The notes under the pieces: model-generated
Told to the model about the DNA's origin: nothing
The model's input: only the letters and a program-made list of their open reading frames with translations
Database searches by the model: none
Assembly (NCBI GenBank): GCA_016930255.1
Contig: JAFGHB010000004.1
Location: 1,444 to 65,443 of the forward strand
Direction of reading: 5' to 3'
DNA length: 64,000 nucleotides
Origin: Methanomicrobia archaeon
GTDB taxonomy: Archaea > Halobacteriota > Syntropharchaeia > Alkanophagales > Methanospirareceae
Made by a program: the position numbers and the translations under genes
Part shown: one piece after another, positions 5,300 to 43,688 of the stretch
Position numbering within the stretch: the stretch's first letter is position 1
Layout of the letters: each line of letters opens with the position of its first letter

Positions 5300-6178
5300 A
5301 TGCACGCTGCAGCACTTGTCCAGACGGTACTGCCGATATTCTTGATTATTGCGGTCGGCTACGCAATTGGCATACGCAGGAAAGTAGAAGTAGATATGCA
5401 GCCTTTTATCGACCTCATTGTGTATATCGCCGGGCCGTGTCTAATCTTCGCGTCTATCGCACGCAGCGACATCAACCTCACGGATTTTACTACCATTGCC
5501 GGCGCCGCGTTGGTGATCGTTCTCATTATGACTTCGGTCGCGTTCCTCATCTTCAGACTGACCGGATCAGCCAAAAAAGGGTTGTATTTACCGCTCGTCT
5601 TCGGCAATACGAGCTATCTCGGCTATCCGGTCGCACTGTTCGCCTTCGGCATGGCCGGCCTCTCACGTGCGGTCGTCTTCGACATGATCAATTCACTCGT
5701 GATCTTTACTCTCGGCATCTATATCGTCCACCAAAGGAACGAGATTCGGGAAGCGTTCAAGATTCCGCTGCTCCACGCCGTCGTCGTCGGTCTGGCCTTC
5801 AATCTCTTACACCTTCAGGTACCGGATGCCATATTCACTCCGATCGAGATGATCGGCATGATCACCATTCCTCTGGCGTTGCTCGTGCTCGGCTATAAAC
5901 TGACGGAGATAAAGCTAACCGCAGTAAAAGTAGCCGTACTCGCGTCGGTATTCCGGATCCTCGGTGGATTTCTGGTTGCGCTCGCGATAATCGAACTGCT
6001 GGCCATCGAAGGTATGGTCCGAGATATCATACTGCTTCAGGCCGCAATGCCCTCGGCCGTCATGGGCATGATTCTGGCTGCGAAATACGACCGGGACGCG
6101 TCGCTGGTCGCTTCCGTCGTGCTCATCACTACGGTGCTCAGTCTGATCTCGATACCGCTCATACTCTCGATGCTCTAA
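5300..6178 (+). CDS. AEC (auxin efflux carrier) family transporter
   Basis: 292-aa polytopic membrane ORF. N-terminal VLPIFLIIAVGY and C-terminal LLQAAMPSAV blocks are typical of AEC permeases. Confidence 0.7.
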   Translation: MHAAALVQTVLPIFLIIAVGYAIGIRRKVEVDMQPFIDLIVYIAGPCLIFASIARSDINLTDFTTIAGAALVIVLIMTSVAFLIFRLTGSAKKGLYLPLVFGNTSYLGYPVALFAFGMAGLSRAVVFDMINSLVIFTLGIYIVHQRNEIREAFKIPLLHAVVVGLAFNLLHLQVPDAIFTPIEMIGMITIPLALLVLGYKLTEIKLTAVKVAVLASVFRILGGFLVALAIIELLAIEGMVRDIILLQAAMPSAVMGMILAAKYDRDASLVASVVLITTVLSLISIPLILSML

Positions 6179-8132: not shown

Positions 8133-8975
8133 TTATTTCCACAACCAGCCGAACAACCCTTTATCGTCCAGCTCACTCTGGGCTACCTGCTGTAATCTCG
8201 TCTGTTCCTGCTCCACATTCTGTATTTGCTCCTGCAGTATAGCCCGCACTTCTTCGTCACAATCACACTCTTCCTGCAATTGCTGAAGCTCGCGAATGCG
8301 GTCTTGATTCTGAATCACCTGTTGCGCTATCTCCTGCGCGGCTGCTTCATCGCCGCCGGCGAAGAACCGTACGATGGTATTCCTTAACTGTATGCGCTCT
8401 TCTGCTCGAATCGTTGCTTGTACAGACGTATTAAGTTCTTCGGCAATTTGGGAAACCTGGGGACCTATACCGCCCACTAACTCCTCCATTGCAAACAAAG
8501 ACTGAACGGCCAATCGCACTCTATTTTGATTTTGGTATACCAGTTGCTGATGCTCATCTAACGCTTGTAGTTCCTGGTTCATCTCTTGCTCTCGCTGCTG
8601 TACCAGCTCGTGCAGTTCGCTTACATTTTGAGCGCGCACCTCCTCCTGCTGTTGAACGCGAATCGTCTCGTTTTCGCCTATATTTTGTGTCTCCTGTTGC
8701 ACCTGTTCCTGCTGAACTTGTTCGGTTCCAGGACTGGTTTCATTTAAGCCCGCCTGTTGGCCTTGCGGGGTGCTGCCCTGTCCCGATTCATTTACTCCTG
8801 CCTGTTGACCCTGCTCAGAGCCCTGACCCGCCTCTTGTAATTCAGGATTCAGGATTTCCGTTCCGGGTTCGTGAATACCACTCTGACCAACAGCCAGAGA
8901 AACCACTGAGGTGAGCACAATTAAAACCACAACCAACAGAATTGCTCGTTTCATACTATTAACATACGTTTTCAA
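8133..8975 (-). CDS. secreted Q/E-rich coiled-coil protein
   Basis: 280-aa ORF with an N-terminal signal/anchor, followed by Gln/Glu-rich helical sequence. No family recognised. Confidence 0.5.
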   Translation of the reverse strand: MKTYVNSMKRAILLVVVLIVLTSVVSLAVGQSGIHEPGTEILNPELQEAGQGSEQGQQAGVNESGQGSTPQGQQAGLNETSPGTEQVQQEQVQQETQNIGENETIRVQQQEEVRAQNVSELHELVQQREQEMNQELQALDEHQQLVYQNQNRVRLAVQSLFAMEELVGGIGPQVSQIAEELNTSVQATIRAEERIQLRNTIVRFFAGGDEAAAQEIAQQVIQNQDRIRELQQLQEECDCDEEVRAILQEQIQNVEQEQTRLQQVAQSELDDKGLFGWLWK

Positions 8976-11245: not shown

Positions 11246-11977
11246 ATGGAACCAGATATTGGTGCAGTTTTAGGACAATTTGATTCTATTAGAGACCATA
11301 CAAGACAGATTCTACAACGTATAGGACGTGGCGGTTGGGTTGATTATACCGAGGAGGGAAAAATCCTTGTTGAAGAATATACTGATGCTAAAATGCAGTT
11401 TGAAAGAATAAAGGGTAAACAAAAGTTTAAAGTGACTCTCCTGGATATAGAATGGATACCATCAGGATGGGCTAAGGAAAAAGCACTCCTTAGAAGAACT
11501 GAGATAGAATGCAGTAAAGCTATTGGCGCTTTAGGAAGTATAGGCACTCCTTTACCTAAAGACGAATTGGACAAACTTTCGGCGCTCAGGGAGGAATTGG
11601 AAAAGCTATCCAAAGTATTGCCTGATATAAACTACGAAAGAAACTTAAGCGAGGCAATAGATGAATACGTAAAAGGAGATTATCTTGCATCAGCATTAAT
11701 CTCCGGTCGTGTTATTATTTACGCTCTAAATCAAATCCCTAGAAAATCTGATGAGGAAAAAGTGAAATTTTTGCTCGAGAAAAAGATTGTAGAGGAAAAC
11801 AGAAAAGACATCCACGAAGCGATAATAAAAGCGAGTAGAAAAGCAAGGAATTTCTTCTCTCACGATATCAAAGTAATCCCAACGCCATCTGAAGCACATT
11901 CATTATTGGGTGAATCCATTGGAATTCTAGACGTGGTTAGCAAAGTCTTGAAGGATGAGGAATACCTTCATAAATAA
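11246..11977 (+). CDS. hypothetical protein with C-terminal HEPN-like RNxxxH motif
   Basis: 243-aa ORF in an AT-rich stretch, preceded by GAGGAGGTGA. R-N-F-F-S-H is encoded at 11846-11863 within a helical C-terminal ~110 aa. Confidence 0.45.
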   Translation: MEPDIGAVLGQFDSIRDHTRQILQRIGRGGWVDYTEEGKILVEEYTDAKMQFERIKGKQKFKVTLLDIEWIPSGWAKEKALLRRTEIECSKAIGALGSIGTPLPKDELDKLSALREELEKLSKVLPDINYERNLSEAIDEYVKGDYLASALISGRVIIYALNQIPRKSDEEKVKFLLEKKIVEENRKDIHEAIIKASRKARNFFSHDIKVIPTPSEAHSLLGESIGILDVVSKVLKDEEYLHK

Positions 11978-32511: not shown

Positions 32512-35268
32512 TTGCGGCAAGATAAAAACTGGTATCAACAGCCGGTGGATCAGGTTTTTGACGCCTTACTCGCGAGCGCGCGGGGGCTCACGGTCAGTGA
32601 GGCAAAAACACGGCTTGAGCGCTATGGCTATAACGAATTGGTGTTCAAGAAACGGGGGCCGCTTGTCCGGTTCCTGATGCAGTTCCACAGCTCATTAATC
32701 TACGTGCTTATCATAGCCGCCATCGTTACCGCTTTTCTCAGCATTACGGGCGAAGGGGAGATGTGGATGGATACGGCAGTTATCCTGGCGGTCGTCCTTG
32801 CCAACGCCATAATCGGCTTCATTCAAGAGGGCAAAGCGGAAGCAGCGGCTGAAGCACTGGAGAAACTGATGACTCCTGAGTGCACCGTGCTCCGAGACGC
32901 TACGCAGGAGATTATCCCAGCACGGGAGTTGGTACCCGGTGACGTGGTTCTGCTGGACGAAGGCAAAAAGGTGCCCGCGGATTTGCGGCTGTTCTATATA
33001 AAGGACATGAGTGCAGATGAAGCGACACTCACTGGCGAGTCCGTGCCGGTAAGGAAGATGACCGAGCCGATTGCAAAGCCCAACTTAACACCCGCGGATC
33101 AGTACTGCATGGCGTTCAGCGGGACGTTCATCACCAACGGCTCGGGCAAGGGGGTGGTCGTCGCTACCGGCAAGCATGCCGAAATTGGCAGAATCGCGGA
33201 ACTGGTGGAAGAGACAGAAGAGACCATCACACCGCTCATGCGAAAGATGGCGGATTTTACGCGATTGTTAATCATTGCGATCCTTGCCATTGCAGCGCTT
33301 AATTTCCTACTCGCAGTACGATTTGGCTTCCCTCCTGTGTATTCATTCCTTGCCTCGGTCTCGTTAGCGGTTGCCGCGATACCGGAAGGACTACCCGCGA
33401 TACTCACCATTACCTTAGCGTTTGGCGCAATGACCATGGCACGGCGCAATGCGCTCATAAAGAAGTTACCGGCTGCAGAAACCCTCGGCGTCACGACGGT
33501 CATCTGCACTGATAAAACCGGCACGCTCACCAAGAACCAAATGACGGTATCGCGAATCTACAGCGGAGGCAGGGATTACATGGTGAGTGGTGTTGGCTAT
33601 GAGCCCAAAGGAGAGTTCTTTCGGGGAGGGCTCACCATTAACCCTGAAAACGAGGGCGAAGCACTGACTGAAACCCTGAGAGGGGGTTATCTGTGCAACA
33701 ACGCTGTGCTTGAAGAGTCTGAAGAAAGAAGGTACAGCATCGTTGGCGATCCTACAGAAGGGGCGCTCGTCGTTTCTGCACGTAAAGCGGGTATTTCCGA
33801 CGACCGCGCCAAATTAGATGAGATACCGTTCTCTTCTGAGCAGCAGTACATGGCTACATTGCACGAGTGCCCGCGCGGGAATGCCATTTATGTGAAAGGC
33901 TCACCGGAGCGGGTTTTACAATTGTGCCAAAAACAACTGGTCAACGGACAGAGTGAACCGCTGCGCAGTGATGTAATCTTAGCAAAGGCGAGCGAGCTGG
34001 CGGGAGAGGCTTTGCGTGTTCTGGGTATGGCGTATAAGCTCGTACCCGCAGAAAAAAGGGAATTGAATCGCGAGGATTTGGAAGGGCTGACGTTCCTCGG
34101 GCTCCAGGGGATGATCGACCCGCCCAGAGAAGAAGTGATGGAGGCGGTAAAGAAATGCAAGCGTGCAGGCATCCGCGTCGTGATGATCACCGGTGACCAT
34201 GCACAGACCGCGAAAGCGATTGCACAGCAGATAGGAATTGGCGAAGACGACGCGAGAGTGCTGATCGGGGAAGAGCTCTCACGAATGAGTGATGATGAGC
34301 TGTACGAGGTTGTGGATACCGTTTCGGTATATGCCCGGGCTGCTCCGGAACATAAGTTCAGAATAACCAAGCAGTTGCAGCGCAGGGGGCATATTACCGC
34401 TGTTACCGGCGATGGCGTAAACGACGCGCCCGCGCTCAAGGCTGCGGACATCGGGATCGCTATGGGGATAACGGGAACCGAGGTGAGCAAAGAAGCCTCA
34501 GATATTATTCTTACAGACGATAACTTCGCCAGCATCGTGGCCGCGGTAGAAGAAGGTCGATACGTCTACGATAACATCCGAAAAATCATTCTGTACACGC
34601 TGCCGACAAATGGCGGGCAAACGATGCTGGTCTTAGGCGCAATACTATTGGCACCATTTTTACCCATCTTCAATCCGCATTTAGGCGGAAGTCTTCCTAT
34701 CGCACCCGTGCAGATCCTCTGGATAAACTTGCTCGACGCCGTTGCGCTCGCACTGCCGCTCATCAGAGAGCCGAAGGAGAAGGGACTGCTCGATAGACCG
34801 CCACGCAGCCCTGATGAACGTATAATCGATAGTCCGTTCTTCAAGAAAGTCGGAATAGTATCGCTGGCAATGGCACTCGCAGGGTTCTTTATGTACTATA
34901 TCGCCACGCGAATATGCGCGGGCGATCCCGAGGTTCTGACAGAGGCACAAACGGCGGCATTCACTACCGTAATGCTGGTTCACATCTGCTACCTCTTCAC
35001 CGCGCGGTCAATCACCGAGTCTGCGTTCAGGTTCAGTCCGTTCTCGAACAAATGGGTGCTCATCGGCGCGGCACTCACGCTCGGGCTCCAGCTCATTATA
35101 ATCTACGCTCCGCCGTTTATTGGCATCAATCCGCTGAGAACTGCGCTCTTGCCGGCCGAATGCTGGCTTGTCATGGTTATACTCGCGATCCCGATATTCT
35201 TCATCATCGAGTTCGAGAAGTTTTTAACTAAGCGTCGAGAAGAGAGGAGAGCGGGGTTTAAAGCGTAG
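32512..35268 (+). CDS. cation-transporting P-type ATPase (type II, Ca2+/Mg2+-like)
   Basis: 918-aa ORF (TTG start as given) with TGES, the phosphorylation site ICTDKTGTLT, MITGDH and the hinge VTGDGVNDAPALK. Confidence 0.9.
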   Translation: MRQDKNWYQQPVDQVFDALLASARGLTVSEAKTRLERYGYNELVFKKRGPLVRFLMQFHSSLIYVLIIAAIVTAFLSITGEGEMWMDTAVILAVVLANAIIGFIQEGKAEAAAEALEKLMTPECTVLRDATQEIIPARELVPGDVVLLDEGKKVPADLRLFYIKDMSADEATLTGESVPVRKMTEPIAKPNLTPADQYCMAFSGTFITNGSGKGVVVATGKHAEIGRIAELVEETEETITPLMRKMADFTRLLIIAILAIAALNFLLAVRFGFPPVYSFLASVSLAVAAIPEGLPAILTITLAFGAMTMARRNALIKKLPAAETLGVTTVICTDKTGTLTKNQMTVSRIYSGGRDYMVSGVGYEPKGEFFRGGLTINPENEGEALTETLRGGYLCNNAVLEESEERRYSIVGDPTEGALVVSARKAGISDDRAKLDEIPFSSEQQYMATLHECPRGNAIYVKGSPERVLQLCQKQLVNGQSEPLRSDVILAKASELAGEALRVLGMAYKLVPAEKRELNREDLEGLTFLGLQGMIDPPREEVMEAVKKCKRAGIRVVMITGDHAQTAKAIAQQIGIGEDDARVLIGEELSRMSDDELYEVVDTVSVYARAAPEHKFRITKQLQRRGHITAVTGDGVNDAPALKAADIGIAMGITGTEVSKEASDIILTDDNFASIVAAVEEGRYVYDNIRKIILYTLPTNGGQTMLVLGAILLAPFLPIFNPHLGGSLPIAPVQILWINLLDAVALALPLIREPKEKGLLDRPPRSPDERIIDSPFFKKVGIVSLAMALAGFFMYYIATRICAGDPEVLTEAQTAAFTTVMLVHICYLFTARSITESAFRFSPFSNKWVLIGAALTLGLQLIIIYAPPFIGINPLRTALLPAECWLVMVILAIPIFFIIEFEKFLTKRREERRAGFKA

Positions 35269-35341
35269 AGGCGCGGTATTAAAGCAGGTTTATAATTATG
35301 AAAGGCGTTTATTGATAAAAGGACTCTGAACGAAGTGAACG

Positions 35342-35623
35342 ATGAGACGTGTAATCTGGTGGCTGATTGTCGGTACGAAAGGCGGCGTAAATCGTGCGCG
35401 GATAATACGGGCATTAAATGAACGACCCTATAACGCCAATCAGTTGTCAGAGGTCCTAGAATTGGATTACAAGACCGTACGACACCATCTCAAAGTCCTT
35501 CTGGATAACAAGATCATCACCGTAGCAGGTGATGGATACGGATCGGTGTATTTCTTATCATCAGGTATGGAGGAAGAGTATGAAGTCTTTAAGGAATATC
35601 TGGATAAAGTGTGGAATAAATAA
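35342..35623 (+). CDS. winged-helix (ArsR-like) DNA-binding protein
   Basis: 93-aa ORF. RARIIRALNERPYNANQLSEVLELDYKTVRHHLKVLLDNKIITV is a wHTH. It lies directly upstream of the paralogous membrane-protein gene. Confidence 0.6.
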   Translation: MRRVIWWLIVGTKGGVNRARIIRALNERPYNANQLSEVLELDYKTVRHHLKVLLDNKIITVAGDGYGSVYFLSSGMEEEYEVFKEYLDKVWNK

Positions 35624-35662
35624 TATAAGCGCAAAAAAGAGAGAGGATAGAAGGTGATAAAG

Positions 35663-35980
35663 ATGCCGGGACCTCAGCCTCTGCCAAGCATGTGGCTCAT
35701 CAATCTCCAGGCGCTCATAACGCTCGGAAACGTTATCCTTTTGCTCTGTCTGCTCTTCATCTACGCGAAGAACTACGAGCAGATCAAGTCGAAATTCGCG
35801 CTGGGCTTGATCGCCTTTGTTATTCTTCTGATTGTGCAGGCATTCATCTCGAATCCGTTCGTCGCTTTTTTGTGGGGCTTTCGGCATCTCGACGCGCTGG
35901 GCCTCCTCAGGATAGTGTCTGAGTGGTTTGAATTTGCGGCATTGGCGATCCTCTTGTATATCAGCCTGAAACCCGAGTAG
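35663..35980 (+). CDS. small three-TM membrane protein, paralog of 42617-42937
   Basis: ATG follows GAAGGTGAT. The 105-aa product shows clear homology to the 42617 product (shared LGN(V/I)ILLLCLL, NY.QIKSKFALGLIAFVILL, FEF.ALAILLYISLK). Confidence 0.6.
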   Translation: MPGPQPLPSMWLINLQALITLGNVILLLCLLFIYAKNYEQIKSKFALGLIAFVILLIVQAFISNPFVAFLWGFRHLDALGLLRIVSEWFEFAALAILLYISLKPE

Positions 35981-36025
35981 CTGAATTCTGAAAAGCGTTC
36001 AAAGCTCATCAAAAGGCTCCAAGCG

Positions 36026-36080
36026 AATTTGGGTACGATTTGGGTCGAATTTGGTAAAAAAGAAAGGCTTATGTGTAGCT
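36026..36080 (+). promoter_or_regulatory. triple 11-bp-phased TTTGGGT direct repeat plus conserved AGAAAGGCTTATGTGTAGC box (copy A)
   Basis: TTTGGGT at 36028 and 36039 and TTTGGT at 36050, then aaaaaagaaaggcttatgtgtagc. It ends about 55 nt upstream of ATG 36134. Near-identical elements occur at 37758 and 41725. Confidence 0.6.
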
Positions 36081-36133
36081 CATTCTCTAACTATAGTCGT
36101 GGAGAGATTCTGAAAGAATCGGAGGTATAAGAG

Positions 36134-36769
36134 ATGAGAATGATGAGAATAAGAACGAAAATAATTGCTGGTTTGCTGGTTCTGGCACTGATAGCAATCG
36201 CCACTGAGGTTGTTCTAGCTCTAGGAGATGTAGGTATGCAATCACCTGAGGGTAGGCAGCCACATGAAGGCAATCGATCTCCCGTAATAGCACCGCGGTG
36301 GCCTGAGGGGCAATGTGATGATATGAACCAGTTGACGGAGGAGGAGAGAGAAGAGATCCAACAGCAAATGCACGAGTTCATGCAGGAGCTACGTGAGCAG
36401 TACAGTGGCGATCTGACGGAAGAGGAGCGCGAAGCGATGGATCAAGAGCTGCAAACCTTCTGGGCGCAGATTTGCGATCAGTACAATATCTCGTGCCCCG
36501 ACGGGTATCGCTATTGGGCTACGGAGGGCGTTGGTACCAATGACACCATCGGACCGGAGAGGCAAATGCCTGAGCGTAGACCTGTCGCAGGGGGAGATGG
36601 CGGGAATTTCAATGAAACCGCAAGGCAGGAACAGCAAAGGGATGAGAATGGGCCTGGACGTGTTGCCAAATGGCTCGGGAATATCAAAACGTTTTTCCAG
36701 AATTTGGTAGGCCTAAAGGCGTATTTGAGTTCAGTTGGGGTGATCGAGTTACAAATCGGGAGAGTATGA
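36134..36769 (+). CDS. secreted E/Q-rich helical protein, LTxxQ (CpxP/Spy/ZraP)-like, paralog of 41847
   Basis: Signal peptide, then NQLTEEEREEIQQQMHEFMQELREQY and DLTEEEREAMDQELQ repeats, with a conserved YNISCP block shared with the 41847 product. Confidence 0.55.
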   Translation: MRMMRIRTKIIAGLLVLALIAIATEVVLALGDVGMQSPEGRQPHEGNRSPVIAPRWPEGQCDDMNQLTEEEREEIQQQMHEFMQELREQYSGDLTEEEREAMDQELQTFWAQICDQYNISCPDGYRYWATEGVGTNDTIGPERQMPERRPVAGGDGGNFNETARQEQQRDENGPGRVAKWLGNIKTFFQNLVGLKAYLSSVGVIELQIGRV

Positions 36770-36802
36770 GTAACGAGGTTAAAAAAGAGGTGATGTAGCG
36801 AA

Positions 36803-37606
36803 ATGGACCGTAAAGATGTAATAATTGCTGTACTTACCATCCTCTTGCTCGGCTCGACCTCGGCTTCGTGCCTCATTTATCAGCAGCAACATGGGATAGA
36901 AGATGTGCAGAGGGTCCTTGGAGTTTTCAGTAATCTTAATAGCGGAACCGCCGGCAACGAGGGTTCGTTCGCTTTTACAGGTGTGTCTCAAGGTGTCAGG
37001 AACGCTACGGCCAATATCGTTGCGGTACGAAGCGATACCAGCATGGGCGAGATAGGAAAGGTGCATGTGGAGATCAACGAAGGAACAGGGAATGTTCTGG
37101 TGAATACGAATCCGTTTACCGAGCCTGATACGCAATATTCCGTGCGAGAAGCAGTCGAAGTGGCTACCGACTTCACACAGGCGAGTATCGCGGATAAAGA
37201 TATCGTTATCTCGTTTGAGATCAACGGCTCGCTGGTTGGGGGGCCGTCAGCCGGAGCAGCGACCACTGTCGCTATCATAGCAGCACTGGAAGGTGAAAGC
37301 GTACGACAGGACGTGGCAGTCACGGGCACGATCGAAGAAGGCGGCGTCATCGGGCAAGTAGGCAGTGTGTTTGAGAAGGCTATCGCAGCAGAGAATAATA
37401 ACATGACGCTCTTTCTCGTGCCAGACGGTCAAGAAATGGTGGTCTATTACGAGCAACAAATCGAAGATCGAGGTAGATTTGACTTCAGGTTTAAGCGGGT
37501 CTATTACACGTCCAAAGAGATCGATCTCGGCGAGTATTTCCAGGGAGAGATGAACGTGAAGGAAGCCTCGACAATTGATGATGTGGTGTCGTACATGATC
37601 ACCTGA
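36803..37606 (+). CDS. membrane-anchored S16 (Lon C-terminal-like) serine protease without ATPase domain
   Basis: N-terminal TM, then GGPSAGAATTVAIIAALEG (catalytic Ser), VAVTGTIEEGGVIGQVGSVFEKAIAA (catalytic Lys). Confidence 0.7.
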   Translation: MDRKDVIIAVLTILLLGSTSASCLIYQQQHGIEDVQRVLGVFSNLNSGTAGNEGSFAFTGVSQGVRNATANIVAVRSDTSMGEIGKVHVEINEGTGNVLVNTNPFTEPDTQYSVREAVEVATDFTQASIADKDIVISFEINGSLVGGPSAGAATTVAIIAALEGESVRQDVAVTGTIEEGGVIGQVGSVFEKAIAAENNNMTLFLVPDGQEMVVYYEQQIEDRGRFDFRFKRVYYTSKEIDLGEYFQGEMNVKEASTIDDVVSYMIT

Positions 37607-37757
37607 GATTGCAACCCATGATAGACAAATACTTTTGTGCGATGCGGCAACAGGAGAGGGTTTTAAAACGCTCCGGTAGCTTTCTTTTTAGTTTACAACC
37701 TTACGTTGTGGCTCTACACAGCGTTGGCGTGGTAAGAGAGATTCAAACAACTTGGGT

Positions 37758-37812
37758 GAGATTTGGGTCTAATTTGGTAAAAGAGAAAGGCTTATGTATA
37801 GCTATTTCTAAC
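37758..37812 (+). promoter_or_regulatory. triple 11-bp-phased direct repeat plus conserved box (copy B)
   Basis: CTTGGGT at 37760, TTTGGGT at 37771 and TTTGGT at 37782, then aaaagagaaaggcttatgtatagc. It lies about 155 nt upstream of the ABC ATPase start at 37966. Confidence 0.55.
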
Positions 37813-37965
37813 CCTTGACCGGGAAGAACCATACGTGAAAAGTGATGCGAAGATGGAGCAGAAGATCGAGATGATTGAAGAAACCGATAAAGTAGAACCG
37901 CATCTCCCCAGATGTAGAGGGGCTCGTAGCACATACAGAGTTCGAACTTCGCTAGGGGGTAGGCT

Positions 37966-38679
37966 ATGAGCCCCTCTGGACTAGATACGGTCATTCAGTT
38001 AGAGAATGTCTGGAAGATCCATCAGATGGGCAATGTTCAAGTGTCAGCGCTACGGGGTATTGATCTAGAAGTAGAGCGAGGCGAATTTTTAGCCATCGCG
38101 GGTGCGAGTGGGAGTGGCAAGAGCACGATGATGAACCTCATCGGTTGTCTAGATCTGCCAAGTAAGGGAACAATTCGGTTGGACGGTACCGATATCGCGA
38201 GTTTTCGCGAGTCGCAATTAGCGCAGATACGCGGCCAGAAAATCGGGTTCGTCTTCCAGCAGTTCAATCTGATTCCCACACTCACCGCTTTGGAGAATGT
38301 TATGCTCCCTCAGGAGTTCCAGGATGTTGAATCCGCACGGGCGAGAGAGAGAGCTCTCGAGCTGCTCGAGCTGGTGGGGTTGGGAGAACGAGTGCACCAC
38401 CTGCCCTCTCAACTATCGGGCGGGCAGCAGCAACGTGTGGCGATCGCGAGAGCCTTGGCCGTTGACCCCGACATAATCCTCGCCGACGAGCCGACCGGGA
38501 ATCTGGACAGCAAGACTGGCGAATTCATCATGAATTTGCTGAGCGAGGTACACGGGAACGATAGCAAAACGATTATTCTGGTGACGCACGATTTCTACCT
38601 GGTAAAGCGAGCGGAACGGGTTGTGTATCTCAAAGACGGCCAAATCGAGCGAGAAGAGCATAACCATAAGAACAACTAG
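37966..38679 (+). CDS. ABC transporter ATP-binding protein (MacB/LolD-type)
   Basis: Walker [11 protein letters not shown]-loop, signature [15 protein letters not shown], Walker [12 protein letters not shown]. Confidence 0.9.
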
Positions 38680-38685
38680 GGTGAG

Positions 38686-39015
38686 ATGAATAAAATGCTA
38701 ATTTGTGATGATTGTGTTAATTATTTCTTGGGGTGTCCAGTAAGTAGCTATCCGATACGTTATGGCTTGTGTGAACTTTGCGGTAACAAAGCGCACTGCT
38801 ACGATATGCACATCCAAAAAAACAAAACAAATGTGAGAAATAAAGTGCATACTACTGCTGATATAATACGAGAAACGATAAGGATGCTGTATTACCCTGA
38901 TATCGATAAGAACGATGGATTGAAATTAGCGGACTATACAATAAGGAAAGTATCTGGCAGAACACCAGAAGAATTAGCTGAATTGGTGTTAAAAAAGGAG
39001 GTAAAAGATAAATGA
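38686..39015 (+). CDS. small zinc-ribbon-like protein
   Basis: 109-aa AT-rich ORF with CDDC...CELC Cys pairs, wedged between the ABC ATPase and the surface-protein gene. Its stop overlaps the next start (ATGA). Confidence 0.4.
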   Translation: MNKMLICDDCVNYFLGCPVSSYPIRYGLCELCGNKAHCYDMHIQKNKTNVRNKVHTTADIIRETIRMLYYPDIDKNDGLKLADYTIRKVSGRTPEELAELVLKKEVKDK

Positions 39016-40349
39016 TAAGGAAGCTGTTATGTAGAAACAAAATGAAGAATGTACTGGCTATTTGTAGTATAGTGGCAGTGCTCGCGTGTCTTGTTGCTCC
39101 GGTAAGCGCGGGCACTGATGCGAGCATCGTTATAACAAACGTAAAGCCTACGGAATTCCTGCCCGGCGAGACGAAAACGCTGACGGTTACCCTTCAGAAT
39201 GGGGGGTCCTACGATGCAAAGCACGTAACGCTTAATTTCGAGGACACTGAGTATATCTCGGTGGTTGGCTCGTCAAGCGTCTCGGCGCTCTCGCTCTCCG
39301 GGTGGAGTTCCAAAGACGTGACGATCACTGTTCATGTCGCAAAGGGCGCGCCAAGCGGGGCGTATGCCATTCCCGTCACCTGCACGTTTGATCAATACTA
39401 TTCCGAGGGCAGTCAAACGGTTACCGAAACCATGCCCGAAGTCTCCTATTCGATCGTCCTCCAGGTGGCGCAGGGCGCGATCATCGATATCGCTGACATC
39501 GTCCCGTCAGAACTGAAGCCCGGTGAGCTGACAGAGCTGCAGTTTACCATCGCCAATATTGGCAATTATCCGTTGCAGGACATCGCCTTTTCGTGGAACG
39601 AAGCGGAAGGAGCAATTCTCCCTCTTTCTTCTGACAATACGAAACACATTAATCGTATCGATGTTGGTGAATCCGTTGAAGTAGCGTACACGGTCGTAGC
39701 CGATGTGAATGCCGATGCCGGGGTGTATCAATTAGATCTGACGATAAAGTTTGACGACGAAAGCGGCGGCTCGAGATCGCTGAACACGACCGCGGGCATC
39801 ATCATAGGCGGGGGAACTGATTTTGACGTGACCTTCTCTGATAGTTCAGATAGCCAGACGTCGCTTTCTGTTGCGAACATCGGTAATAATCCCGCGTATT
39901 CCGTGACGGTGAAGATTCCTGAGCAGGAGCAGTTCGCGGTTCAGGGCAGCTCCGCCTCGATCGTCGGCAATCTCGATACAGGCGATTACACCATCGTCTC
40001 ATTCGAGCTAACGTCCACACGTACTTCGTTCGGAGGACCTGCTGCTGCAGATCCCTCTCAACAACAAAGTGCCACTCAAAACAACGATCTTGACGTATTG
40101 ATTGAATATACAGACGCAACGGGCACACGACAAACGGTTGAAAAAACCGTGGCGATTCCATCCACTAATTCGAGCTCAAATGCAGCTCAATTCCCTCCTG
40201 GTATGATGAGACAACAGCAGAGCATCTGGCAAAATACCACCTTAATTGGCGTTATTGCTCTCGTGATTCTCCTTATTGTTGGATTTATCTGCTACAAGAA
40301 AAGGCAATCGGTAACTGCGTTTTTAACCCGATTTTCACGAGCAAAGTGA
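39012..40349 (+). CDS. secreted beta-sandwich repeat protein (CARDB/COG1361-like) with C-terminal TM anchor
   Basis: Signal peptide. Repeated ~110-aa units (P.E..PGE...L...L.N.G...A..V...). C-terminal LIGVIALVILLIVGFICYKKRQ anchor. Confidence 0.6.
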   Translation: MIRKLLCRNKMKNVLAICSIVAVLACLVAPVSAGTDASIVITNVKPTEFLPGETKTLTVTLQNGGSYDAKHVTLNFEDTEYISVVGSSSVSALSLSGWSSKDVTITVHVAKGAPSGAYAIPVTCTFDQYYSEGSQTVTETMPEVSYSIVLQVAQGAIIDIADIVPSELKPGELTELQFTIANIGNYPLQDIAFSWNEAEGAILPLSSDNTKHINRIDVGESVEVAYTVVADVNADAGVYQLDLTIKFDDESGGSRSLNTTAGIIIGGGTDFDVTFSDSSDSQTSLSVANIGNNPAYSVTVKIPEQEQFAVQGSSASIVGNLDTGDYTIVSFELTSTRTSFGGPAAADPSQQQSATQNNDLDVLIEYTDATGTRQTVEKTVAIPSTNSSSNAAQFPPGMMRQQQSIWQNTTLIGVIALVILLIVGFICYKKRQSVTAFLTRFSRAK

Positions 40350-40368
40350 AGAAAGAGTAAGTAACACG

Positions 40369-41622
40369 ATGAAAGTGAGAAAATCCCTCAAGTTAGCCGT
40401 AAATATTCTGGTGCACAGCAAGCTGCGTAGCTGGCTGACGATTATCGGTATCGTCATCGGAATCGCTGCGGTGGTTGCGATCGTATCTATAGGGGAAGGC
40501 ATGCAGCAGGGTGTCGAGAGCCGTCTTGGAGGGCTCGGTGCGGATGTTATTACCATCTCCCCTGGGGGAGGGCGTGCTTCTGCGGGGTTCCGTGGCCCTC
40601 CTGGTGAGCAGGGAAGCGCTGCAACCTCTGATGACGCCGAAGATTTAACCAAAAGAGACGTTCAAGTGCTTCAGTCTGTAGACGGTATTGAGTTGATTCA
40701 GGGCACCGTTTCAAGCAGCGGAGAAGTGTATTACCTCGGAGAAAAGGCAACCGTTTCTATTGAGGGTGTAGAACCGTTGGTCTGGAAAGAGATGACCACA
40801 TCTGAACTGGAATCCGGGCGGTTCCTCGGCCCGTCAGACTATAATGCCGTTGTCGTTGGCAACAGCATAGCCGAAGATACGTTCAAACAGCCGTTAACGG
40901 TGAACCGCGTGATCACCATCGAGGGCAAAGCATTCAAGATCGTGGGCATTTTAGAAGAAAGTGGGAGTTTTGGTGGGAACGACCGTACGATAATCATGCC
41001 CATTGACGCTGCGCGAGATACCCTGGATGACATTGGCGAGGATGAGTTCGACTCTATCACGATCAAAGCAGCGAGTACTGCTGATATCGACCAGATTATG
41101 GAAGATGCCGAGCAGAAGTTACTGAACTATCGGCACCTTACGGAGGACACCGCGGATTTCAGAATAAGCTCAGAAAAATCCATGCAGGAGACCATGAGTG
41201 ACGTCACAGAAACCATGTCCCTATTTTTAGAAGCGATTGCCGCAGTTTCTTTGCTGGTCGGATCCGTGGGTATTGCGAACACCATGTTTACGTCAGTGCT
41301 GGAGAAGACGAAGGAGATCGGGATCATGAAATCGATCGGAGCAAGGAACGGTGACATCATGATGATTTTCCTCTTAAATGCAGCAATCGTCGGGCTGGTC
41401 GGCGGGGTATTAGGGATCTGTCTTGGTACCGGCATTTCTTCATTACTGCCGCTCCTGGGTATGCGGATAATGGGAATGGGGGAAGAAGTGACGACGGTGA
41501 TCACACCTATGCTTTTAATTTATGCGGTTCTTCTCGCCGTCGGCATTGGCATCGCAGCTGGTGTTATTCCGGCCTATCGCGCGTCAAGGCTCAAGCCGGT
41601 TGATGCATTGAGGTATGAGTGA
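40369..41622 (+). CDS. ABC transporter permease (FtsX/MacB-type, large extracytoplasmic domain)
   Basis: 417-aa ORF with an N-terminal TM, a ~220-aa external domain, and a C-terminal FtsX block (IGIMKSIGARNGDI...AYRASRLKPVDALRYE). Confidence 0.85.
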   Translation: MKVRKSLKLAVNILVHSKLRSWLTIIGIVIGIAAVVAIVSIGEGMQQGVESRLGGLGADVITISPGGGRASAGFRGPPGEQGSAATSDDAEDLTKRDVQVLQSVDGIELIQGTVSSSGEVYYLGEKATVSIEGVEPLVWKEMTTSELESGRFLGPSDYNAVVVGNSIAEDTFKQPLTVNRVITIEGKAFKIVGILEESGSFGGNDRTIIMPIDAARDTLDDIGEDEFDSITIKAASTADIDQIMEDAEQKLLNYRHLTEDTADFRISSEKSMQETMSDVTETMSLFLEAIAAVSLLVGSVGIANTMFTSVLEKTKEIGIMKSIGARNGDIMMIFLLNAAIVGLVGGVLGICLGTGISSLLPLLGMRIMGMGEEVTTVITPMLLIYAVLLAVGIGIAAGVIPAYRASRLKPVDALRYE

Positions 41623-41724
41623 AATGCATTTCAATACCGTGGTAGACGCACTCGTTGATGGTGCCTCCTCGTTGCTTGGCATTCACGGAGTTTCTGCTGG
41701 CGTCGGTAGAGGTAAGTCCGAGAA

Positions 41725-41790
41725 AATTTGGGTAAGATTTGGGTGGGATTTGGCTCTAATTAGGGTGAAAAGAAAAGCTTATGAGGGGTT
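41725..41790 (+). promoter_or_regulatory. triple 11-bp-phased direct repeat plus conserved box (copy C)
   Basis: TTTGGGT at 41727 and 41738 and TTTGGC at 41749, then gaaaagaaaagcttatgagggg. It lies about 55-60 nt upstream of ATG 41847. Confidence 0.6.
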
Positions 41791-41846
41791 ATTTCCAATA
41801 TATAGCCGTGGAAAAGCGTTAAAAATTTAGGAGGTGATATGACAAA

Positions 41847-42422
41847 ATGAAAACAAAATTGATTGCAGGATTGGTGGTTCTGGCATTGGTGGCAACGGCC
41901 ACTGGTGCGGTTCTCGCCCGGGACAATTCTGGCATGCAACCACCTGAAGGTGTGGAATCGCTCACGGGAGCACATCAGTGGTCCAGAGGTCCTGGGTGTA
42001 TGAACCAATTGACGGAGGAGCAGAGAGAGGAAGTGCAGGAACAAATGCAGGAGTTCCGGCAGCAGTTAGCGGAGCAGTACGGTGTCGACATGACGGACGC
42101 GGAGCGAGAGGAAATGCGGGAGCAACTACAGGAAAAGCAACAGGAGCAGCATCAGGAAATGCAAGAGTTCAGACAGCAGTTAGCGGAGCAGTATGGTATC
42201 GACATGACGGACGAGGAGCGAGAGGAAGTGCAGGAACAAATGCAGGAGTTCCGGCAGCAGTTAGCGGAGCAGTATAACATCACCTGTCCCAGCGGCCCGC
42301 AATTTGTGGATGAAGATGGTGATGGTATCTGTGAAAACATGGGCCCGCACATGCGAGGGTTTCGAGGAGAGCCAGGATTCGGTGAATTTCCACCAACTCC
42401 TCCAGATGTAGCGGAACAGTGA
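41847..42422 (+). CDS. secreted E/Q-rich helical protein with LTxxQ motif and three internal repeats, paralog of 36134
   Basis: Signal peptide, then NQLTEEQREEVQEQMQEF. QEFRQQLAEQY(G.DMTD.EREE) is repeated three times (DNA repeats start at 42048, 42162 and 42243). Conserved YNITCP block. Confidence 0.55.
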   Translation: MKTKLIAGLVVLALVATATGAVLARDNSGMQPPEGVESLTGAHQWSRGPGCMNQLTEEQREEVQEQMQEFRQQLAEQYGVDMTDAEREEMREQLQEKQQEQHQEMQEFRQQLAEQYGIDMTDEEREEVQEQMQEFRQQLAEQYNITCPSGPQFVDEDGDGICENMGPHMRGFRGEPGFGEFPPTPPDVAEQ

Positions 42423-42616
42423 TAACGGAGATGGTATAGCCGCCATTATACACAAACCGTAGTAGTGAGTGGTGCGTGGTTCTTTTTCCACATCTTCCAC
42501 GCACCCACTATTTTTTCAGTTTTGGTAAACGAACAAGGGGAAGAAGAAAGCAGGTCATGTTAGATTACGGGAATACCGTTTAAAACGGAAAGAGAAAAAA
42601 ATAGAAGGTGATAAAA

Positions 42617-42937
42617 ATGCCGATACCACTGCCGCAGCCTCAGCCAGACATGTGGCTCGTCAACCTCAAAGCGGTTACAACATTAGGGAACATTATACTC
42701 TTGTTGTGTTTACTTGTCATCTACGCGAGGAACTACGGGCAGATCAAATCGAAATTCGCGCTGGGCTTGATCGCTTTTGTTATTCTCCTGCTTGTGCAGG
42801 CGTTCACCTCGAATCCGTTCGTCCACGTGATGTGGGGCTTTCGCCATATAAATGCGTTGGGCTTGTTCACCATATTGCCTGATCTGTTTGAATTTGTGGC
42901 CTTGGCGATATTACTGTATATTAGCCTGAAGTCCTGA
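42617..42937 (+). CDS. small three-TM membrane protein, paralog of 35663-35980
   Basis: Same GAAGGTGATAAAaATGCCG start context and clear protein homology to the 35663 product. Confidence 0.6.
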   Translation: MPIPLPQPQPDMWLVNLKAVTTLGNIILLLCLLVIYARNYGQIKSKFALGLIAFVILLLVQAFTSNPFVHVMWGFRHINALGLFTILPDLFEFVALAILLYISLKS

Positions 42938-43352
42938 GTCGTTATGCGCTTCTCAGAGCGTAAAAACGACTGCATGGGATTCTAAATTGGATGAAGCGCT
43001 GGGTAGCGTGGGTACCGTTACGATAACCACCAAAGATTATGAAGGGATCGAAATAGGCGAAGGCACGCTAAGATAAGACCAGACCGAACGAAGGTGATTG
43101 CCGTGGCGACCATCGGGTGCAGCTCACAGTTCATCCGCCACAACAGAGCGTGGGGGCTCGATAGATTTCGGATTGCCCGCACAAAGAGATTCGGAACATA
43201 GCTTGTGCAGCGAAGGACCGAAAGGCCGCTTCCGAAGAAGCTCCAAATATCTTCGTTCTTGCCACGTGGGCTCAAAAAAAACCAATTATTTTATATACCC
43301 TTATCAAATAATATCTCGACAACTACCTAAAATAAAGAAAGGGGTGAAAGAA

Positions 43353-43688
43353 ATGGAGATAAAGATGAAATACAGGTTTGCATTTACGCTCTGCGTGCTC
43401 TTGCTCCTCACGGGATTGAGTGTGGGGCTTGCAGGAGCGCAAGAAGCAGAAGCGGCAGCTACAGTGGGAATGACAGAAGGCGCATGGATCGCCTTAGCAA
43501 CAGCAGCAACGATGGTGGGTTCCGCACTCGCTGCGGGTTGGGCAATAGTAGCTACCGGTGTTGCTGCTGCTGGCGCGACGGCGGAGAAGCCTGAGATATC
43601 CGGGCGAGTGCTTATTTTCGTAGCTCTCGCCGAGGCAATAGCTATCTATGGGCTTTTGATCGCATTCATGCTCTGGACGAAGATATAG
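43353..43688 (+). CDS. A/V-type ATPase proteolipid (subunit K/c)-like hairpin protein, orphan
   Basis: AAAGGGGTGA Shine-Dalgarno site before ATG 43353. Signal-like N-terminus, then two TM helices: [35 protein letters not shown] and [23 protein letters not shown] with a conserved carboxylate (E). No other ATPase genes are nearby. Confidence 0.5.

Follow-up and report, generated by a model that had tools for sequence, protein, structure and literature searches.

The stretch analysed here (the window) is 64 kb of contig JAFGHB010000004.1 from a Methanomicrobia archaeon. It contains a run of forward-strand genes for a P-type cation ATPase, a 93-residue winged helix-turn-helix (wHTH) protein and a small membrane protein of the DUF8036 family (DUF8036a), followed by three targets that encode secreted or envelope proteins: a secreted LTxxQ-like protein paired with an S16 protease, a MacB-type ABC operon, and a second LTxxQ-like protein (Table 1). 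At the promoters of these three targets we found the same element, three to four copies of an 11-bp-phased unit, ATTTGGGT, placed directly 5' of a putative TATA box. In the window's clade, the module formed by these genes adjoins the P-type ATPase gene. An earlier note on this DNA, made from the sequence alone, had drawn attention to the element and named several of the surrounding genes, but overlooked DUF8036 as a conserved partner as well as the 38-codon open reading frame (ORF) that opens the ABC operon.

Table 1. Features of the locus in window coordinates (aa, amino acids; BRE, B recognition element; PWM, score in bits of the position weight matrix described in the text)
Feature	Position	Strand	Remarks
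P-type cation ATPase	32512-35268	+	First gene of the order described
wHTH protein, 93 aa, candidate regulator	35342-35623	+	HTH_5, 39.8 bits
DUF8036a, membrane protein of ~105 aa	35654-35980	+	Probable start ATG 35663
Array A	36027-36059	+	Three 11-bp units, ATTTGGGTACG, ATTTGGGTCGA, ATTTGGTAAAA; PWM 38.2
Promoter A	36060-36075	+	Purine-rich BRE-like AAGAAAGG, then TATA-like CTTATGTG
Target 1a, secreted 211-aa LTxxQ-like protein	36134-36769	+	Helical module of LTEEEREE type; PF13801, 21.7 bits (cut-off 29.2)
Target 1b, S16 (Lon_C) protease	36803-37606	+	N-terminal membrane anchor; Lon_C, 45.5 bits (cut-off 21.1)
Array B	37750-37782	+	Three units, ACTTGGGTGAG, ATTTGGGTCTA, ATTTGGTAAAA; PWM 37.4
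Promoter B	37783-37798	+	GAGAAAGG, then CTTATGTA
38-codon ORF opening the ABC operon	37853-37969	+	Stop overlaps the ABC start codon (ATGA)
Target 2, MacB-type ABC operon	37966-41622	+	Four genes
ABC ATPase	37966-38679	+	Target 2
Cys-rich 109-aa protein	38686-39015	+	Target 2
CARDB surface protein	39012-40349	+	Target 2
MacB_PCD/FtsX permease	40369-41622	+	Target 2
Array C	41726-41769	+	Four units, ATTTGGGTAAG, ATTTGGGTGGG, ATTTGGCTCTA, ATTAGGGTGAA; PWM 37.6 and 35.0
Promoter C	41770-41785	+	AAGAAAAG, then weak TATA-like CTTATGAG
Target 3, secreted 191-aa protein	41847-42422	+	Three LT/MT-EEREE modules; C-terminal NITCPSGPQFVDEDGDGICEN; PF13801, 24.7 bits (cut-off 29.2)
Hairpin, then T6 run	42471-42517	+	GGTGCGTGG...CCACGCACC; 3' of target 3, before DUF8036b
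DUF8036b, paralogue of DUF8036a	42608-42937	+	Probable start ATG 42617
Decayed relic of array plus promoter	42986-43046	+	Unit spacings 12 and 9; TTATG retained; PWM triple below 12
Lone ATP-synthase-c-like gene	3' of the relic	+	Last gene of the order described

Within the window, the pattern TTGGGT-N4-TTTGGGT-N4-TTTGG (TTGGGTNNNNTTTGGGTNNNNTTTGG) has exact matches at 36029, 37752 and 41728, all on the forward strand, and a fourth match, overlapping and with two mismatches, at 41739, where it represents a second register inside array C. When up to three mismatches were allowed, four matches were observed against 0.09 expected, and none of 100 shuffled sequences reached four. The lone heptamer TTTGGGT is not enriched (8 found, 6.5 expected), so that the signal is the phased array. 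A position weight matrix (PWM), which scores three units in the 11-bp register and for which 37 units were collected, gave 35-38 bits at arrays A, B and C, compared with a maximum of 16.8 in shuffled sequence; off-register echoes aside, no other site in the 64 kb exceeded 22 bits. Three copies of a TTTGGGT repeat with 11-bp spacing, found nowhere else in the 64 kb, were what the earlier note had reported, and both searches bear this out.

The architecture of the copies had to be revised in part. The unit is an 11-mer with the consensus ATTTGGGWnnR, repeated head to tail in one orientation, that of the downstream gene, with no palindrome within or between units by inspection; these are direct repeats and not the half-sites they had been called. 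Positions 1-6 of the unit (A/T/T/T/G/G) are kept in 31-37 of the 37 units and the GG at positions 5-6 in 34-37 of them, which indicates base-specific reading. All three copies exist as described, but copy B occupies 37750-37804 and begins about 8 nt earlier than had been given, and copy C, counted before as three units, holds four in phase (starting at 41726, 41737, 41748 and 41759), the alignment placing the extra one distally; this fourth unit accounts for the additional 11 nt of copy C. The degenerate fourth copy suspected after DUF8036b is not a working site: its PWM score lies below noise, its phase is broken, and it is decayed to the same extent in a relative (locus L202 of our comparison).

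Downstream of each array, at a constant distance, stands the box GAAARGCTTATG, which occurs exactly in the window only at 36062, 37785 and 41772. The TATA-like sequences of the three promoters (CTTATGTG, CTTATGTA and CTTATGAG) deviate from the consensus. In close relatives the CTTATG box of the window reads CTTATATAGG, and in distant lineages the same position holds CTTATATAG, TTATATATG, TTTTATATATG or CCTATAAAG, of which the first two are canonical TATA boxes. Because the box thus matches the TATA position in close and distant lineages alike, its assignment as BRE/TATA, previously a guess, is well supported by the alignments. A better-looking TATATAG lies 20 nt further 3' in A and C; it was not taken as the core promoter because it is not conserved in ABC-type promoters. 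A scan for sigma-70 promoters and terminators returned counts at chance level and is irrelevant for an archaeon. In an intergenic alignment of eight lineages of the window's clade, nothing is conserved 5' of the array, and the only conserved islands are the units, AAGAAAAGCTTAT (BRE/TATA), a TTATT block, CGTGG and the ribosome-binding site. The geometry in this clade is array, one purine-rich BRE-like turn (AAGAAAGG) and TATA-like CTTATG. No gap separates the last unit from a canonical TATA box in ANME-2, Hydrothermarchaeota and Thermoplasmatota, and this proximal unit is consistently of the type TTCTGG(A/G/T)AAT, unlike the distal ATTTGGG type. The BRE-like turn or the TATA box marks the end of every array that we read; none of these arrays overlaps TATA or lies downstream of it.

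The distribution of the array was approached from two directions, the motif and the protein. A degenerate pattern, TTGGGTNNGATTYKGGYNNRATTDGG, which is biased to window-like arrays, was scanned over metagenome contigs and gave 99 loci and, after clustering, 109 unique arrays, 61 of them on contigs encoding proteins of the family and 48 on unrelated contigs. The two groups differ in kind. Neighbouring units share on average 7.1 of 11 positions in the 61 related arrays and 9.8 of 11 in the 48 unrelated ones, which are near-perfect 11-mer microsatellites, whereas the related arrays are imperfect and stand in a constant context. That the related arrays might themselves be simple tandem repeats or microsatellites, including those of the Borg type, was rejected since only the core is conserved and the context is constant. 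A loose scan of genomes with the bare motif produced at least 120 matches, mostly bacterial (for example in Collinsella and cyanobacteria), which were set aside as perfect microsatellites or an unrelated conserved region. The latter is a GCTTTGGGTACTCTTTGGGTTACTTTTGGTTTG sequence conserved just 5' of the ribosome-binding site and ATG in several Collinsella loci (L084, L088, L094, L095, L100, L111, L118 and others); unrelated to the archaeal system, it accounts for many of the matches. Among the matches listed, the relevant ones are only that in a Methanosarcinales metagenome-assembled genome (MAG; L110) and possibly that in a Nitrososphaeraceae MAG (L096, DASVEV010000044.1). In L096, three units, AATTGGGTAGG TTTTGGGTCTA ATTTGGGAATA, lie on the reverse strand at about 4876, just 5' of an ORF for an apparent membrane protein (N-terminus MAEINILVSAIAGMGSFFSPCILPILPAF), with a gene for a 44%-identical wHTH 2.5 kb away; this could be an extension of the system to Nitrososphaeria, or chance.

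On the 61 related contigs the gene downstream of the array most often encodes a small secreted protein of the LTxxQ or DGDG type (39 arrays) or opens the small ORF/ABC operon (11 arrays); in five cases the contig ends, in five there was no hit, and in one the gene is DUF8036. Upstream lies DUF8036 in 46 cases, FtsX in six and S16 in three. Both strands were checked in eight loci, and the opposite strand carried no array in any of them. Three loci (L162, L186 and L194) carry three arrays each, before a long LTxxQ gene, an LTxxQ1-like gene with S16, and the ABC operon, that is, the same three operon types as the window, and an array precedes the orthologous ABC operon in L121, L125, L139, L166, L181, L190, L194, L223, L234 and L237. 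The contig of L139 and L202 (Ga0307378_10000358), whose wHTH is 96% identical, reads wHTH, DUF8036a, array, small ORF-ABC, array, LTxxQ2, DUF8036b. Compared with this order, the window has one cassette more, LTxxQ1-S16 under a promoter copy of its own, which sits between DUF8036a and the promoter of the ABC operon (36027-37749). Where relatives still have DUF8036b before the ABC operon, the array at that place is intact; it has decayed where the target is absent, so that it belongs to the downstream promoter and not to the 3' end of DUF8036. Even where the flanking intergenic DNA, and the target family itself, have changed, the units remain, with their 11-bp phase. Footprinting in relatives, which had also been suggested, thus finds the array conserved 5' of the same operon types, and the proposal of one shared cis-element over envelope-gene operons is upheld in every comparison that we ran, among them its recurrence elsewhere before small secreted proteins, with or without S16, and before the ABC operon.

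For the second direction, ten distinct lineages were picked by wHTH protein identity alone. Nine of the ten have an intact DUF8036 gene 3' of the wHTH gene, the tenth (L133/134) keeping a fused remnant only, and in eight of the ten the pair is followed by three to five phased TTTGG units, then TATA, then a gene for a small protein. Most lineages encode this protein with an N-terminal signal peptide; none is obvious in the 141-aa protein called in L137, and L131 has no called gene of this kind. The array-bearing loci include some whose wHTH is only 52-70% identical, from MAGs named ANME-2 or Hydrothermarchaeota or with nearest homologues named Thermoplasmata. The arrays, with a solidus before the TATA region, read ATTTGGGTATG ATTCTGGTGAG ATTTGGATATA ATTCTGGAATA / ATTATATATG in ANME-2 (L128), ATTTGGAACTA ATTTGGAATAA AAAAGGCATAA TTCTGGGAAAT / TTTTATCA in Hydrothermarchaeota (L131) and ATTAGGGTATA ATTTGGGTATA AGTTGGAACCC TTTCTGGTAAT / TTCTTATATAG in Thermoplasmatota (L239). 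A PWM built from the ten window units alone and run over 253 kb of these loci had these array sites, and no others, as its top matches, except that in some lineages two units also matched, more weakly, within the 3' end of the wHTH gene. The conservation of an oriented, phased array at a fixed position 5' of the core promoter of the same operon types is therefore established, as is its linkage to wHTH-DUF8036, and no other gene pair accompanies the array throughout the phyla sampled. This pair is found in MAGs named ANME-2, Methanosarcinales, Methanomicrobia and Hydrothermarchaeota, on contigs with a wHTH nearest to Thermoplasmata proteins, and possibly in the Nitrososphaeraceae MAG.

Three features of these more distant loci may be recorded here. 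The weaker match is the sequence gagATTTGGgagaaAATTGGGaataa, with which the last codons of the wHTH gene read in L127/L128 (~965-990), L131 (8245-8275), L137, L141, L144 and L176; it amounts to two operator-like units 11 bp apart just 5' of DUF8036, with the same ATT and GGG codons in six lineages, occurs in ANME-2, Hydrothermarchaeota and Thermoplasmatota lineages and has no counterpart in the window's clade. Either an autoregulatory site or simply a conserved peptide, EIWxKIGxK, could underlie it. In L144 (1280-1340), L239 (~5830-5885) and L240 (~5785-5835), loci with a wHTH nearest to Thermoplasmata proteins, four units and a canonical TATA precede a different secreted family, and in L240 the ATG follows about 13 nt after TATA, a gap short enough to suggest a leaderless mRNA. 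Lastly, in the Hydrothermarchaeota-type loci L131 (~8660-8720) and L137 (~8665-8725), a conserved inverted repeat, GGGAGCTAG...(~35 nt)...CTAGCTCCC, with no Rfam match, takes the place of an obvious ORF 3' of the array and TATA; it may correspond to a small RNA or to a structured 5' leader.

The earlier note had named the wHTH protein at 35342 as the obvious candidate regulator, and it remains the most plausible one, as wHTH and DUF8036 are the sole pair always adjoining the array. The protein matches PF01022 (HTH_5) well above the cut-off of 22 bits, its AlphaFold2 model (pLDDT 87) has the elements H-H-H-H-beta-beta-H, and in Foldseek this model superposes on CzrA, SmtB, CadC and HlyU with TM scores of 0.72-0.76; by domain score and model, it has the domain and the alpha1-alpha5 fold of the ArsR/SmtB family. 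The DNA-spreading archaeal protein AspA, which is ArsR-like, is also among the structural matches, and sequence searches gave weak links to ArsR-annotated PDB chains, PH1932 and CzrA. The further profiles, for ArsR/SmtB, SdpR and Phr, all match below threshold, with 34.5 bits for the NCBIfam profile HTH_metalloreg (cut-off 55) and 24.8 bits for the SdpR profile NF033789 (cut-off 100). The protein has no cysteine, its only histidines (H48 and H49) both lie in the recognition helix, and the C-terminal helix has none. It follows from the sequence that neither an alpha3N nor an alpha5 metal site is possible and that this cannot be a canonical metal sensor. Pfam detected no receiver or Trans_reg_C domain on the wHTH protein or its neighbours. 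By the defining features of the metal-sensing ArsR/SmtB, the SdpR and the OmpR families, the system belongs to none of them.

Across 30 homologues of the wHTH protein 31 positions are invariant, and the recognition helix DYKT(V/I)RHHLKVL is invariant even in a 52%-identical Thermoplasmatota branch, whose nearest homologues are named Thermoplasmata or Thermoplasmatota and which retains the TTTGG units. We counted 1722 homologues, all from uncultured archaea, with source names including Methanomicrobia, Ca. Methanospirareceae, Methanosarcinales, ANME-2 cluster, Halobacteriota and Hydrothermarchaeota; an exact look-up of the window's own sequence found no record. The wHTH gene itself has no array or strong single unit in front of it, at 35269-35341 in the window and likewise in L121 and L128, nor does the P-type ATPase gene have an array 5' of it; no autorepression of the SdpR type is therefore evident.

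The second half of the conserved pair, DUF8036, is a protein of about 100 aa for which the alignment suggests three transmembrane (TM) helices, with an invariant IKSKFxLGL loop between TM1 and TM2. Homologues carry the precomputed annotation PF26119, and beyond the DUF we found no Pfam, NCBIfam or literature annotation. At E values up to 0.1, DUF8036a has no match to the SdpI family of Pfam and matched only MscS_TM and DUF2157. Its gene lies directly 3' of the wHTH gene in nearly all lineages examined and reads as co-transcribed with it, an adjacency from which we propose that DUF8036a is the membrane partner or sensor of the wHTH protein. In L133 (8320-8775) and in L134, the array and promoter have been lost and a secreted protein with DGDG repeats continues in frame from the first TM helix of DUF8036, through either a natural fusion of the genes or an artefact of assembly.

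What the arrays precede is diverse in family and similar in kind, the shared trait across most lineages being a small protein with an N-terminal signal peptide. Targets 1a and 3, which the earlier note had taken for chaperone-like and which are at most putatively so, are paralogues; PF13801 stays below its cut-off for both (Table 1), the AlphaFold2 model of target 3 has a pLDDT of 50, and some homologues carry the precomputed annotation PF13801. The LTxxQ-like family comprises 49 proteins from MAGs named Methanomicrobia or Methanophagales, built of a signal peptide, one to three LTEEEREE..QMQEFRQ..EQYGID modules and a terminal NITCPSGPQFVDEDGDGICDN. Its members vary by entire modules of about 38 aa, and the C-terminal NITCPSGPQFVDEDGDGICDN resembles DxDxDG calcium-binding loops, as do the several FVDADGDGxCDN repeats of the ANME-2 target (L128). 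The Thermoplasmatota target belongs to an unrelated secreted family (...RFRGIWG..DGYFGG..GLYNK...). The S16 protein combines its Lon_C domain with the motifs of a Ser-Lys dyad, GPSAG and a conserved downstream Lys, and has an N-terminal anchor and no AAA+ module. In the ABC operon, the Pfam scores (ABC_tran 121.5, CARDB 38.7, MacB_PCD 130.6 and FtsX 79.9 bits) identify a MacB-type (type VII) transporter. The 38-codon ORF is kept in L121 (12072-12191) and L139 (622-738) with a shared tail, CRGAxS...LGGxL, and is possibly a leader peptide or a small subunit. The hairpin and T6 run behind target 3 probably form a transcription terminator that separates this gene from DUF8036b; a matching hairpin and T-run follow the target 3 orthologue in L121 (~11425-11460).

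Taken together, these findings make it very probable that the array is a regulatory switch, not described before, which serves secreted and envelope proteins in uncultured archaea of at least three phyla. In the model that we prefer, and to which we would assign a probability of roughly 0.6, the arrays are operators for a sequence-specific DNA-binding protein, the wHTH protein binds them cooperatively and most likely activates, and DUF8036 may gate it. The three to four direct repeats, up to five in relatives, would face one side of the helix, where several copies of the wHTH protein would occupy them cooperatively; this binding is the part of the model that we consider most probable. The bound protein would then help transcription factor B (TFB) and TATA-binding protein (TBP) onto promoters with sub-optimal TATA boxes. 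DUF8036 would set the activity of the wHTH protein, for instance by holding it at the membrane or releasing it, and probably does so, since the wHTH protein has neither a metal or ligand site nor a sensor domain of its own. The output in the window would be three transcription units (LTxxQ-like protein and S16 protease; 38-codon ORF and ABC transporter with CARDB protein; second LTxxQ-like protein), and the signal may be envelope or divalent-cation stress.

Activation is somewhat favoured over repression because the arrays never overlap TATA or the transcription start site and the TATA boxes of the window are weak, which is the published signature of activators. The archaeal activators EarA, Ptr2 and the ara-box factor bind immediately 5' of BRE at promoters with weak TATA/BRE; for EarA there are four 6-bp sites in the fla promoter of M. 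maripaludis, and such sites are needed for TFB/TBP loading (PMC5512572). The window shares with the EarA sites of Methanococcus maripaludis fla, the Ptr2 upstream activating sequence and the Sulfolobus ara-box the placement of short repeated sites directly 5' of BRE/TATA, with no overlap of TATA or start site. It differs from them in the unit ATTTGGGW, the strict 11-bp phase, an ArsR-fold protein of 93 aa with a membrane partner, and targets that encode secreted and envelope proteins instead of the archaellum; activation is here a proposal.

Several points weigh against this model. Dimers of the ArsR/SmtB family are two-fold symmetric and normally read inverted repeats, for which tandem direct repeats are an awkward substrate; how a symmetric-dimer fold would read direct repeats is the main structural puzzle. 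The ArsR family, like the weakly similar Phr and SdpR, consists classically of repressors. In ANME-2 and Thermoplasmatota, TATA is canonical and the last unit sits at the BRE position, a geometry that also suits repression. Finally, the array is missing in two of the ten wHTH lineages, L133/134, where the in-frame fusion removed the promoter, and L238.

Of the alternatives, one in which the wHTH protein represses has the most to recommend it, and we still regard it as unlikely. Oligomers would nucleate on the distal units, spread over the unit next to BRE/TATA and block TFB/TBP, until a membrane signal made DUF8036 sequester the wHTH protein and the promoters were derepressed, the logic of SdpR/SdpI in B. 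subtilis. The fold and the weak profile matches (ArsR/SmtB, SdpR, Phr) do point to families of repressors, AspA among the structural matches spreads along DNA, and in ANME-2, Hydrothermarchaeota and Thermoplasmatota the proximal TTCTGG unit takes the BRE position beside a strong TATA. In SdpR/SdpI, too, an ArsR-type regulator shares its transcript with a small polytopic membrane protein, and the likeness extends to the want of a metal site and to an envelope-related output. Homologues of SdpI with three transmembrane segments, corresponding to the SdpR-binding half, have been described (PMC2910880). The resemblance stops at the sub-threshold SdpR score, the lack of an SdpI match for DUF8036a, and the placement of direct repeats before neighbouring genes with no operator before the regulator's own, so that autorepression as in SdpR is not seen. 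Archaeal repressors usually act at sites overlapping TATA or downstream of it (PMC5512572); no array that we read lies there, and the clade of the window has a whole BRE-like turn between the array and a weak TATA (CTTATGTG, CTTATGAG). Membrane sequestration, by analogy with SdpR/SdpI (PMC2910880), could serve either sign of regulation.

We think it improbable that another protein, encoded elsewhere, binds the array, such as a DUF7343 wHTH or a specialised TFB or TBP paralogue, with wHTH-DUF8036 a mere neighbour or a further target. The misfit between direct repeats and a symmetric ArsR dimer would be removed by such a binder, a DUF7343 wHTH protein is encoded right after the FtsX gene in L121-L124, the array of L233 has no wHTH gene within its 2.3 kb, and that of L096 lies 2.5 kb from the wHTH-like gene. 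Yet most array-bearing lineages lack DUF7343 and the Cys-rich 109-aa protein, only wHTH-DUF8036 is found with the array throughout the phyla sampled, DUF8036 stands directly before 46 of the 61 arrays, and neither the recognition helix nor the TTTGG core varies. That the array is no protein site at all, being the remnant of a duplicated promoter cassette, T-tract curvature, or a 3'-end, terminator or RNA element of DUF8036, is very improbable, for while A and C precede paralogous genes, most arrays come just after the DUF8036 stop codon and outside the clade the pattern appears only as perfect 11-mer microsatellites, the imperfect units and their phase have outlasted changed flanks and target families with the GG retained, copies B and C follow S16 and FtsX and the target-less copy after DUF8036b has decayed, and there is no Rfam match in 35000-43500 or in L137, no hairpin potential seen in the units and no run longer than TTT.

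Set beside other known systems, the preferred model describes a transcription factor operator and regulon of a familiar sort with an unusual pairing of protein and operator. With the metalloregulators CzrA, SmtB, CadC and HlyU the wHTH protein shares the order alpha1-alpha2-alpha3-alphaR-beta-hairpin-alpha5 at TM scores of about 0.75; it differs from them in lacking a metal site and in facing a tandem direct repeat instead of a 12-2-12 inverted repeat. The pho box of the OmpR/PhoB family consists of a 7-bp core and a 4-bp variable spacer repeated head to tail every 11 bp, and is read by a winged helix. This geometry, adjoining the core promoter, is that of the window, whereas OmpR/PhoB proteins are bacterial, carry a receiver domain and contact sigma-70, and the wHTH protein has no receiver or Trans_reg_C domain and stands at an archaeal promoter. 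As to output, bacterial envelope-stress regulons include Cpx with CpxP/Spy, ZraPSR, and the ABC modules of the Bce/Lia type. Secreted LTxxQ-like helical proteins, an extracytoplasmic protease and a MacB/FtsX transporter, possibly under one regulator, recall these regulons; the differences are that no two-component system or sigma factor is involved, that the LTxxQ match is sub-threshold, and that the Thermoplasmatota target is of an unrelated family. The earlier note was not aware of any description of this operator, and literature on DUF8036, on TTTGGGT in archaea and on archaeal envelope stress with direct repeats yielded none.

In conclusion, a defined model is now at hand, with an 11-bp unit, its promoters, a 93-aa candidate regulator and its membrane partner, and an output that comprises secreted proteins, acidic or with Cys, together with a MacB-type pump and an extracytoplasmic S16 protease. 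As far as we know, operators have been identified for few transcription factors of archaea, and no regulon dedicated to envelope or extracytoplasmic stress has to our knowledge been established in this domain. The carriers are uncultured anaerobic archaea, including MAGs named ANME-2 and ANME-1-related ones (Methanophagales, Methanospirareceae), for which genetics is not available; the small proteins and short operators make study in vitro or in a Methanosarcina host easy. Should the wHTH protein bind the arrays, tandem direct repeats would be read by an ArsR-fold protein, which would be unusual. More tentatively, and with considerable doubt, wHTH-DUF8036 may be an unrecognised membrane-coupled signalling module of several archaeal phyla, in which a repurposed ArsR fold polymerises head to tail on the direct repeats with their 11-bp phase and turns on the genes of secreted and envelope proteins, as a dedicated extracytoplasmic stress response. 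Were the stress-response reading true, these archaea would possess a functional analogue of Cpx, Bce and sigma-E assembled from different parts.

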